Below are positions 39,510-41,300 of a stretch of 61,322 nt of DNA, piece after piece. Below the pieces are notes generated by a model. The model was not told the origin of the DNA and made no database searches. It worked only from the letters and a program-made list of their open reading frames with translations. How positions within the stretch are numbered: position 1 is the first letter of the stretch; each line of letters starts with the position of its first letter. The position numbers and the translations under genes are program-made. Source of the DNA: Candidatus Thorarchaeota archaeon (GTDB lineage Archaea; Asgardarchaeota; Thorarchaeia; Thorarchaeales; Thorarchaeaceae); NCBI GenBank assembly GCA_046758445.1, contig JBHIAE010000015.1:1-61322 (forward strand), read 5' to 3'.

Positions 39510-41300
39510 TATTGTGAGTGAACCACAACAGCAAGAAACTTCTGTGTTCAGCCCCTCTCCTGCCAGTGTCACCACCTTCCGAGATCCAAGGGATTTCAGA
39601 ATTAGCAAGAGCATTGTCTGTCATCATCGGGATGGGATCCCTCCTCCAGACCTGGCCTCCTTCTCCTGTCCTGGTGCTGGGTCATCACTTCCAGCGACAG
39701 TGAGAGCTTCCACAGTTCTTTCCACGGCAGGGTCATCATCACCCCTCTTGACATCATCACTGAAATCAAGAAGACTCATCTGAGCATGGTGAACGGCCGC
39801 GGACTCTCCGGGACTTGATGCAGGTCCCCTCTTGGAGAGTAAGGACTTCCGTCCGGAAGACTTCCTTCGGGCTTTCAGTCGCGCACGTCGAGCCCTTTCC
39901 AAGGCTCTAGTCCACAGACTTAGTCCTCTCACAGAGTGCAGTGACTTTGTGAGCGTGAGCATGCGTGCAGCAATGTTGATACTAGCATTTCGGTCGGCAT
40001 TGGTCTTCTGTCCACATGAGGGGCATTGGAAGTAGTTCTGCTTGGGTCTCCTACCCTTGCAGCCACACTTCCAGCAGATGATGGAGGTCCACGCCTCAGG
40101 AACAGCTCTGAATGGAGCGTTTCTTCCGTCAACCTTCCAGCCAAGCTGAGCAAGTCCATGCTTCAGACTCTCGGTCATTCGAGCAAAGGCCCATGAGTGG
40201 ATCATTCCTCTGAACATTCGACCCTTGTAGTTCCCGCGCTGCGCATGCATTCGTATATTCTTCAGGCGACCAATGGCAACATAGAGCGTGTACCTTTTGG
40301 ATAGTTCCGAGATATAATTGAGAATCTGACGCACTAGGACTCTGTCATATTCCCGAGCAACATTCTCTCTCTTGAAGCGCAATTGACGGAGCCTCTCACC
40401 AACTCTATCATATTCAACTACGTTGTTCTTTCTGGTGTGCATCTCTCTCTGCAGATCTGCAACAAATCTATCGTACTTCTTGATGTACTTGACCTTCTCC
40501 CTGTGGAAAAAGTATCGAGTTTCTCTTGTCTTCTCAGGAGTGAGAAGGGTCGAGCAGGCGGCCTTCTCAACACCAAGATCGATTCCAAGGACGGCAACAG
40601 GAAAGTCACTCTCAATGGACTCTTGGGTGGTGAGTCTGACTGCAATCGTCACCCACCACTTCCTCCTTCTATCAGTGAAGAGCTGCAATGCCTTCACCTC
40701 ACCACGTCTGATCTGGTTCAGATGGAAGGGCGACATCTTGAGAGGGACTATCAACCGGTCATGACGTGTTCGTTTCTCCCGCACAGAGTCAAGAAAGTCC
40801 CTGATATCAAGCCACCATCGAGAAATGGAGGTCTCTTCTTGAATGAGTCTGAATCTCTGCGAAAAGACCCATCGAGGTGTTAGTCGACTACGGTTGATTG
40901 AAGTAGGACGGGATGCATTTCTCCCCTTCTTCGTTCTCAGCTTGAGGTAGCTCTCATACATAGATACAGCCGTCTGCCTGAGCCTCTGCCTAGTCCGCGC
41001 GGTCATGACCTCCCAGTTGATGGGTACCTTCACCGCGATTGTCACACCCTTGGAACGAGGCGTCGCCATCTCGCCTTCTGATATATAAAGTTCTGACCCG
41101 TTACTGAGCTAGCTGAGTTCACTCCCCTTCTTGTCTAGAGAGTCAGTTTTGAACTCATACAATGAAATAGCGTTTTGATATATAAAGTTAGTAAGACTGC
41201 AAATGCACAGTTCACTGAAGTGGCCTGATGATGACGAAGACGGGCCTGTAGTGGCATTTTGAATTTGTCGATTTACCCGAATAATCTAATATATTCTATG
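39510..41300 (-). mobile_element. Non-autonomous IS200/IS605-superfamily (IS1341-like) element, ends approximate
   Basis: Solo tnpB with no tnpA nearby; about 110 nt of 3' non-coding flank. Exact ends cannot be determined by eye. Confidence 0.6.
39624..41069 (-). CDS. tnpB: TnpB-family RNA-guided endonuclease with rearranged RuvC-II
   Basis: RuvC-I GIDLG (D164); canonical RuvC-II position reads AIG; EAWTSIIC (E325); CWKC/CPSC Zn finger; RuvC-III NADRNA (D359). Confidence 0.9.
   Translation of the reverse strand: MATPRSKGVTIAVKVPINWEVMTARTRQRLRQTAVSMYESYLKLRTKKGRNASRPTSINRSRLTPRWVFSQRFRLIQEETSISRWWLDIRDFLDSVREKRTRHDRLIVPLKMSPFHLNQIRRGEVKALQLFTDRRRKWWVTIAVRLTTQESIESDFPVAVLGIDLGVEKAACSTLLTPEKTRETRYFFHREKVKYIKKYDRFVADLQREMHTRKNNVVEYDRVGERLRQLRFKRENVAREYDRVLVRQILNYISELSKRYTLYVAIGRLKNIRMHAQRGNYKGRMFRGMIHSWAFARMTESLKHGLAQLGWKVDGRNAPFRAVPEAWTSIICWKCGCKGRRPKQNYFQCPSCGQKTNADRNASINIAARMLTLTKSLHSVRGLSLWTRALERARRARLKARRKSSGRKSLLSKRGPASSPGESAAVHHAQMSLLDFSDDVKRGDDDPAVERTVEALTVAGSDDPAPGQEKEARSGGGIPSR

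Follow-up and report, generated by a model that had tools for sequence, protein, structure and literature searches.

Within a 61,322-nt stretch of a Candidatus Thorarchaeota contig (assembly GCA_046758445.1, JBHIAE010000015.1; hereafter the window), an open reading frame of 481 aa at 39624-41069 on the minus strand encodes a TnpB whose RuvC domain carries a glycine where the canonical catalytic glutamate is expected, and an alternative glutamate (Ealt) just ahead of its zinc finger. Our best explanation of the locus, which we regard as likely when taken as a whole, is that this gene belongs to an Asgard TnpB family with the known Ealt type of RuvC site, that full-length members of the family are part of an aCas1-TnpB element, and that the window holds a solo copy in decay. 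As the arrangement has already been described and tested in archaeal TnpBs and in Fanzors, the gene is a genuine yet unremarkable case of a class already known: both its active-site type and the Cas1 association are in the literature, and the locus adds nothing new to the picture of rearranged RuvC sites.

The assignment to TnpB is straightforward. The product matches Pfam PF07282 (Cas12f1-like TNB domain) at 1.7e-12, above the cut-off, and reaches 92.6 bits with NCBIfam NF040570 (guided_TnpB), slightly below the 100-bit cut-off. More than 500 homologues were found, the best of them at 67-79% identity and with a length of about 558 aa, and the window gene is a deletion derivative of a family whose members measure about 556-560 aa. 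Several homologues at 70-79% identity are named Candidatus Thorarchaeota, in keeping with an earlier sequence-only reading of this DNA that had called the gene an Asgard TnpB, and Heimdallarchaeota, Heimdallarchaeaceae and Odinarchaeia are names among the more distant representative clusters. The host genome (3.25 Mb, 113 contigs) holds at least nine tnpB paralogues at 43-80% identity. Judging from these sequences, the window gene belongs to a multi-copy TnpB family of Asgard archaea (Thorarchaeota), itself within the TnpB/Cas12 superfamily of RNA-guided DNA endonucleases.

The rearranged RuvC site and its age

Counting directly along the 481-aa translation, RuvC-I reads GIDLG (40572-40586, minus strand, as for all active-site features) with the catalytic D164 (codon 40578-40580), and RuvC-III reads NADRN (39987-40001) with the catalytic D359 (39993-39995); the span 39993-40580 to which the sequence-only reading was attached runs exactly from the one codon to the other. 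Between them, the RuvC-II strand VAIGRL (40263-40280) places Gly267 (40269-40271) at the canonical Glu position, and PEAWTS (40083-40100) supplies Glu325 (40095-40097). The C4 zinc finger, CWKC...CPSC, extends from C332 to C352 (40014-40076; CxxC at 332-335 and 349-352), with its first Cys seven positions after E325 and six residues between the two. Ealt has been defined as just such a Glu, six residues ahead of the zinc finger, and given as a regular expression (Yoon et al., PMC10711439), which the window protein fits exactly with spacings of 158, 6, 13 and 6. The count thus upholds what had been read from the letters alone, namely a Gly at the RuvC-II Glu position, a Glu ahead of the finger, intact D164 and D359, and a RuvC-I of DLG rather than the Fanzor-type DPG; it was also right that Fanzors and some TnpB clades have this rearrangement.

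The sequence-only reading had left the conservation of E325 to be checked, and the residue proves to be conserved, beyond what chance would give. G267 and E325 are invariant across all 120 of the closest protein clusters, as are D164, D359 and the C4 zinc finger, and G267 and E325 are unchanged in paralogues of the same genome down to 45% identity. A search with the family profile among 1.8 billion cluster representatives returned 4,206 matches, and we scored the 67 listed representatives of at least 330 aa: the D/G/E/D set is complete in 58 of them, some named Thor-, Heimdall- or Odinarchaeia, and in all 67 the residue after the RuvC-I Asp is L, F, V, M or I, with DPG in none (the window copy has DLG). 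Only one of the 67 clusters keeps the canonical Glu, and there the alternative position is occupied by Ala. When the family profile is aligned to solved structures, its Gly position coincides with the catalytic Glu of both Al3Cas12f (IQMERL) and TnpB 9nzp (INVEFL), and E325 aligns with the Pro of their VDPYxTSQ motif.

An AlphaFold2 model of the intact paralogue on contig C37 of the same genome (L003:1201-2868), built from a 76-sequence alignment (mean predicted local distance difference test, pLDDT, 82; predicted template-modelling score, pTM, 0.76), offers a view of where these residues may lie. Strand β1 (232-239) ends at the RuvC-I Asp, D238, strand β4 (335-342) ends at the Gly, G341, and the alternative Glu, E399, comes directly after strand β5 (394-398), beside the β4 that the Gly closes, with pLDDT of 91-95 around all three. 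This predicted topology matches the relocation of the Glu from β4 to β5 described in PMC10691335. Among solved structures, Foldseek ranks AsCas12f and OsCas12f first for this model (target TM-score, TMt, 0.67-0.70), then ISFba1 and ISDra2 TnpB, with Fanzor2 at rank 30 (TMt 0.58); the family profile also scores canonical Cas12f/TnpB above Fanzor2 (E 1e-13 versus 6e-8). The Fanzor2 match pairs profile positions 4-176 with residues 314-473 of the mimivirus chain 9b0l, so that its end-points set D164 on Asp324 and E325 on Glu467; Asp324, Glu467 and Asp501 are the Mg-binding triad in the Fanzor2 cryo-electron microscopy structure. By this homology, E325 would complete a D-E-D triad with D164 and D359. 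Two points should temper the assignment: the Fanzor2 pairing comes from the ends of the matched stretch rather than from a residue-by-residue alignment, and the placement of the alternative Glu beside the two catalytic Asp in three dimensions is indirect, as it is predicted from fold topology and Fanzor2 homology.

How old might this state be? A quick maximum-likelihood tree was built from 71 rows, made up solely of relatives and three canonical-Glu (Ecan) outgroups on long branches. It places the window copy in a 4-row clade (Shimodaira-Hasegawa approximate likelihood ratio test, SH-aLRT, 99), which is nested in a Thor clade of 16 rows (99), and Ealt is the state of every one of the 68 ingroup rows. 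A lone Ecan cluster lies nearby, on a branch that is long and has poor support. Considering that Ealt is uniform over this deep clade and that its sole Ecan neighbour is so placed, any origin must be old, and the sampled sequences indicate that the Ealt state is old in the Asgard lineage. The sequence-only reading had entertained a convergent case; a recent convergence finds no support here, since the state is common to every sampled relative across a deep tree. An older one, in which Ealt arose independently in the Asgard clade, apart from TnpB2/RIIr-5 and the Fanzors, is a different matter, and we consider it rather unlikely. Rearrangements of RuvC-II ('RIIr') have been placed in two major clades and eight large branches, some of them almost exclusively archaeal and the largest involving a Glu-to-Gly change (Altae-Tran et al. 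2023, PMC10691335), which makes repeated origins plausible, and the best matches to the family among PDB sequences are canonical-Glu proteins. Against this stand the clean split between Ealt and Ecan sequences (PMC10711439) and the uniformity of Ealt over the 68 rows of our own tree.

The window copy, its insertion block and its omega-RNA

The window copy of this Ealt family departs from its relatives: 78 residues present in every full-length relative are missing from it. Comparison with the paralogues places the junction of this private, in-frame 78-codon deletion, RQRL/RQTAV, at about 40971-40979 (within 40968-40985, minus strand), at some 9 nt of microhomology, and none of the 120 closest clusters shares it. 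An assembly artefact was considered as its cause and rejected, because a microhomology of about 9 nt would be too short for a k-mer mis-join. In the full-length paralogue model the deleted stretch forms helices of the REC region with pLDDT of 90-97; most REC helices are lost, which leaves the window copy with an incomplete N-terminal WED/REC lobe, whereas the full-length paralogues have these helices. REC helices hold the guide-target duplex in the structures of ISDra2 TnpB and Cas12f.

The surroundings of the gene are themselves rearranged. It lies in a 2.4-kb inserted block (39492-41892) that is missing from a genome of the same genus, where the two flanking genes, one ArsR-like (window 41895-42536) and one of 247 aa (38748-39491), stand 18 nt apart (empty site L028, G007:C86, 894-913); none of these 18 nt is recognisable at either window junction (39491/41893). 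Alongside tnpB, the block contains a fragment of a PHP-domain (histidinol-phosphatase-like) gene (41458-41893, plus strand) with a frame break near 41670 and a truncation at 41893; genomes of the same genus have an intact homologue, located on a different contig (L032, 1666-2214).

Given the loss of 78 REC codons and the adjoining pseudogene fragment, the window copy, a solo derivative, is most likely decaying and nuclease-incompetent, and would still encode an intact omega-RNA. Three observations pull the other way as regards decay: the reading frame is still open; the ratio of nonsynonymous to synonymous substitution rates (dN/dS) over the core is about 0.21 in the window lineage, not clearly above the 0.12-0.20 of the paralogues, so that no relaxed selection was detected on the window lineage by this measure; and the omega-RNA of the copy keeps 105 of 106 pairs. 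The deletion may hence have happened recently, or the shortened product may retain some role. The second possibility in its fuller form, that the 481-aa product works as a naturally miniaturised TnpB or serves as an omega-RNA-binding protein whose role has changed, we find quite unlikely. The same three observations speak for it, together with the retention of all catalytic and zinc-finger residues; on the other side, the deletion recurs in none of the 120 closest clusters, the lost residues fold confidently as REC helices, the copy sits in a rearranged block with a pseudogene, and an unchanged dN/dS is what would be expected of a recent deletion.

The scaffold of the putative omega-RNA, of about 420 nt (39514-39932, minus strand) overlaps the last ~100 codons of tnpB, is closed by a helix of GTGAG (39928-39932) with CTCAC (39514-39518), and ends 3' in GGTTCACTCAC (39514-39524, minus strand), a sequence conserved across the family. 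A consensus structure drawn from an alignment of 14 family 3' regions, with slid-partner and shuffled controls, has 106 pairs, 51 of them with compensatory changes; pairing is kept in 95% of cells, compared with 42-45% when partners are slid, and no shuffle attains the observed values. Over the last ~110 codons of tnpB the synonymous rate is sharply depressed, with dN/dS rising to about 0.6, and the C-terminal tail encoded over the omega-RNA is disordered in the C37 paralogue model. Covariation and depressed synonymous change thus both indicate that a structured omega-RNA overlaps the 3' end of tnpB. An Rfam scan of window positions 38500-42600 gave no match.

Between the scaffold and the flank lies the most variable segment, 24 nt at 39490-39513 (minus strand), which is a candidate guide or element terminus. 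The 21-nt candidate guide has no second match in the genome within 3 mismatches. Among diverged copies, the 24 nt that follow GGTTCACTCAC can be sorted into a small number of sequence classes that recur, such as ...AAATGnAAGnATGGGTTAT and ...GAAACAGGTC..., which is unlike ordinary guides taken from random flanks. On the other side of the gene, a conserved region at 41070-41196 (minus strand), common to the paralogues and either a left end or a promoter, holds GAGTGAAC, the inverse of the 3' GTTCACTC. Two GTTCACT(C/G) motifs are found upstream of tnpB (41115-41127 and 41208-41220, plus strand), in inverse orientation to GGTTCACTCAC; perhaps the motifs and GGTTCACTCAC could be terminal inverted repeats, or a site of RNA-RNA pairing. 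Elsewhere in the genome there are solo omega-RNA or right-end fragments of 60-270 nt with no tnpB (C3:26130-26346, C40:12430-12702, C2:111228-111304, C10:58089-58225 and C8:9415-9509), which may have been left behind by lost elements or may be RNA genes in their own right.

The Cas1-like partner and the proposed mechanism

On four contigs of the host genome and in metagenomic loci, full-length tnpB copies are divergent from a gene for a giant protein of 1,600-1,870 aa (C37:18082-22977, C102:2117-4438, C85:1588-6348 and C2:130320-134513 in the host genome; L014:2645-7741, minus strand). Sequence searches of Pfam, NCBIfam, the PDB and the ESM Atlas gave no match to this protein. A model of its N-terminal 370 residues, built from 32 sequences, has a pLDDT of 81.5, and Foldseek returned weak Cas1 rows for that model (E 0.15 or worse); in an exhaustive structural search, catalytic domains of Cas1 and casposases made up the top 12 matches (Z 9.3-12.5; next 5.9). 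The Cas1-like catalytic fold occupies the N-terminal ~250 aa, in which E73, H185 and D195 are invariant, and some 1,300 aa remain beyond it. Of 26 genomes sampled from the same family, 17 were found to have the giant gene, often with numerous copies. Neither the flanks of the window copy nor the related loci that were inspected showed a Y1 (IS200/IS605) or serine (IS607) TnpA.

Cas1 homologues of the aCas1 type were reportedly treated by Makarova and colleagues in 2020. The giant Cas1-like partner, together with a GTTCACTCA motif reported downstream of tnpB in aCas1-linked Asgard TnpBs (PMC10691335) and found there in the window as well, matches the full-length copies to the aCas1-TnpB element type catalogued in Asgard archaea. 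The likeness to the published 'Cas1H-Asgard-1/-2' groups (PMC10691335) extends to the Asgard hosts and to a tnpB set beside a highly diverged Cas1 homologue; the window copy differs in that no Cas1-like gene stands beside it. One feature sits awkwardly with the match: the published hypervariable stretch is upstream of GTTCACTCA, whereas in this subgroup the upstream side is conserved and the variable stretch is downstream.

Taken together, these elements suggest how the family might work. In the full-length paralogues, the protein would bind an omega-RNA of ~420 nt that overlaps the tnpB 3' end and terminates in GGTTCACTCAC, and, by analogy with Ealt relatives, could make an RNA-guided cut in DNA matching the adjoining guide. 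Autonomous copies carry tnpB divergently from the gene for the ~1,700-aa protein with its N-terminal Cas1-like integrase domain; the window copy is a solo derivative, and it would have lost its 78 REC codons through a microhomology deletion.

TnpBs with the canonical Glu also occur in the host genome. One at C3:36908-37987 (L089) is typical (333 bits, with IAVESL and DRDAN) and has an in-frame TAG; two others, at C6:21123-21785 (L097) and C38:145-786 (L099), are of a divergent GVDRG/FFEDL type, and that on C38 comes after a fragment of the Cas1-like gene.

Fanzors and other known systems

The relocated Glu matters for two reasons: its carriers cut their target without collateral cleavage of single-stranded DNA, and the site is a mark of the branch from which Fanzors arose. 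Fanzors and the TnpB2 group have a common RuvC-II rearrangement, and Thermoplasma volcanium TvTnpB, with its rearranged Glu (E323), cleaves DNA at an NTGAC transposon-adjacent motif and has no collateral activity, while in ApmFNuc the E467A substitution abolishes cleavage (Jiang et al. 2023, PMC10530073). It is tempting to ask whether an Asgard lineage of this type might be specially related, or even ancestral, to the eukaryotic Fanzors, as the sequence-only reading had suggested in speaking of their origins; we think this very improbable. The relocated Glu does occupy the same position as in Fanzors, and the hosts are archaeal relatives of eukaryotes. Yet all 67 listed clusters have D-hydrophobic-G and none has DPG, Fanzor2 ranks below canonical Cas12f/TnpB by both profile and fold, no serine recombinase was seen at the loci examined, and published trees derive Fanzors from cyanobacterial IS607 TnpBs having DPG together with Ealt (Yoon et al. 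2023, PMC10711439). With DLG in RuvC-I, and no similarity to Fanzor2 beyond that to Cas12f/TnpB, a special link to Fanzor origins is unsupported. We would give scant credence, too, to the more specific idea that Asgard D-hydrophobic-G/Ealt TnpBs on Cas1-like giant-protein elements represent the archaeal lineage that is sister to, or the source of, the Fanzor-type active site; were it true, the relocated Glu would have reached eukaryotes from their archaeal relatives, and not only from cyanobacterial IS607 elements. Weakest of all, with a probability close to negligible, is a nuclease-dead, TldR-like regulator marked by loss of the canonical Glu: the Gly at that position and the solo, not obviously mobile state of some copies could be read this way, but there is almost no variation in the D, the alternative E, the D and the zinc finger, a conserved replacement Glu is retained along with both Asp, fragments and scars in a multi-copy family are typical of mobile DNA, and enzymes of exactly this arrangement cleave DNA (PMC10530073).

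The Asgard Ealt family can thus be set against three groups of known proteins. Canonical TnpB and Cas12f proteins (ISDra2 TnpB 8exa/8h1j, AsCas12f 8j12, OsCas12f 9nzq, TnpB 9nzp) have the same WED-REC-RuvC-zinc finger architecture and are its best matches among solved structures in both fold and sequence; they differ in keeping the Glu on strand β4, with Pro or another residue where the Asgard family has its Glu. Fanzor2 of Acanthamoeba polyphaga mimivirus (ApmFz2, 9b0l) and the cyanobacterial pro-Fanzors are alike in the relocated Glu (Glu467 with Asp324 and Asp501), and Fanzor2 has a compact TnpB fold similar to that of the Asgard paralogue model; in contrast, the DPG, the N-terminal extension or nuclear localisation signal, the IS607 serine-recombinase ancestry and the eukaryotic or viral hosts that characterise Fanzors were all unseen in the Asgard family.

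The closest likeness is to the TnpB2/RIIr TnpBs with D-hydrophobic-G and Ealt, of which TvTnpB is an example. Both have Gly at RuvC-II, a Glu six residues before the C4 finger, D-hydrophobic-G in RuvC-I and NADxN in RuvC-III, an archaeal host, and an omega-RNA that overlaps the gene at its 3' end. As a ~558-aa Ealt TnpB that comes with a giant Cas1-like partner and a ~420-nt omega-RNA whose covariation is very clear, the Asgard family may nonetheless merit attention at the bench. Known here from sequence, it stands apart from the TnpB2/RIIr proteins in being larger, with a disordered tail of ~100 aa read through the omega-RNA, in the greater length of that RNA, and in its pairing with a giant Cas1-like protein rather than with a Y1 or serine TnpA.

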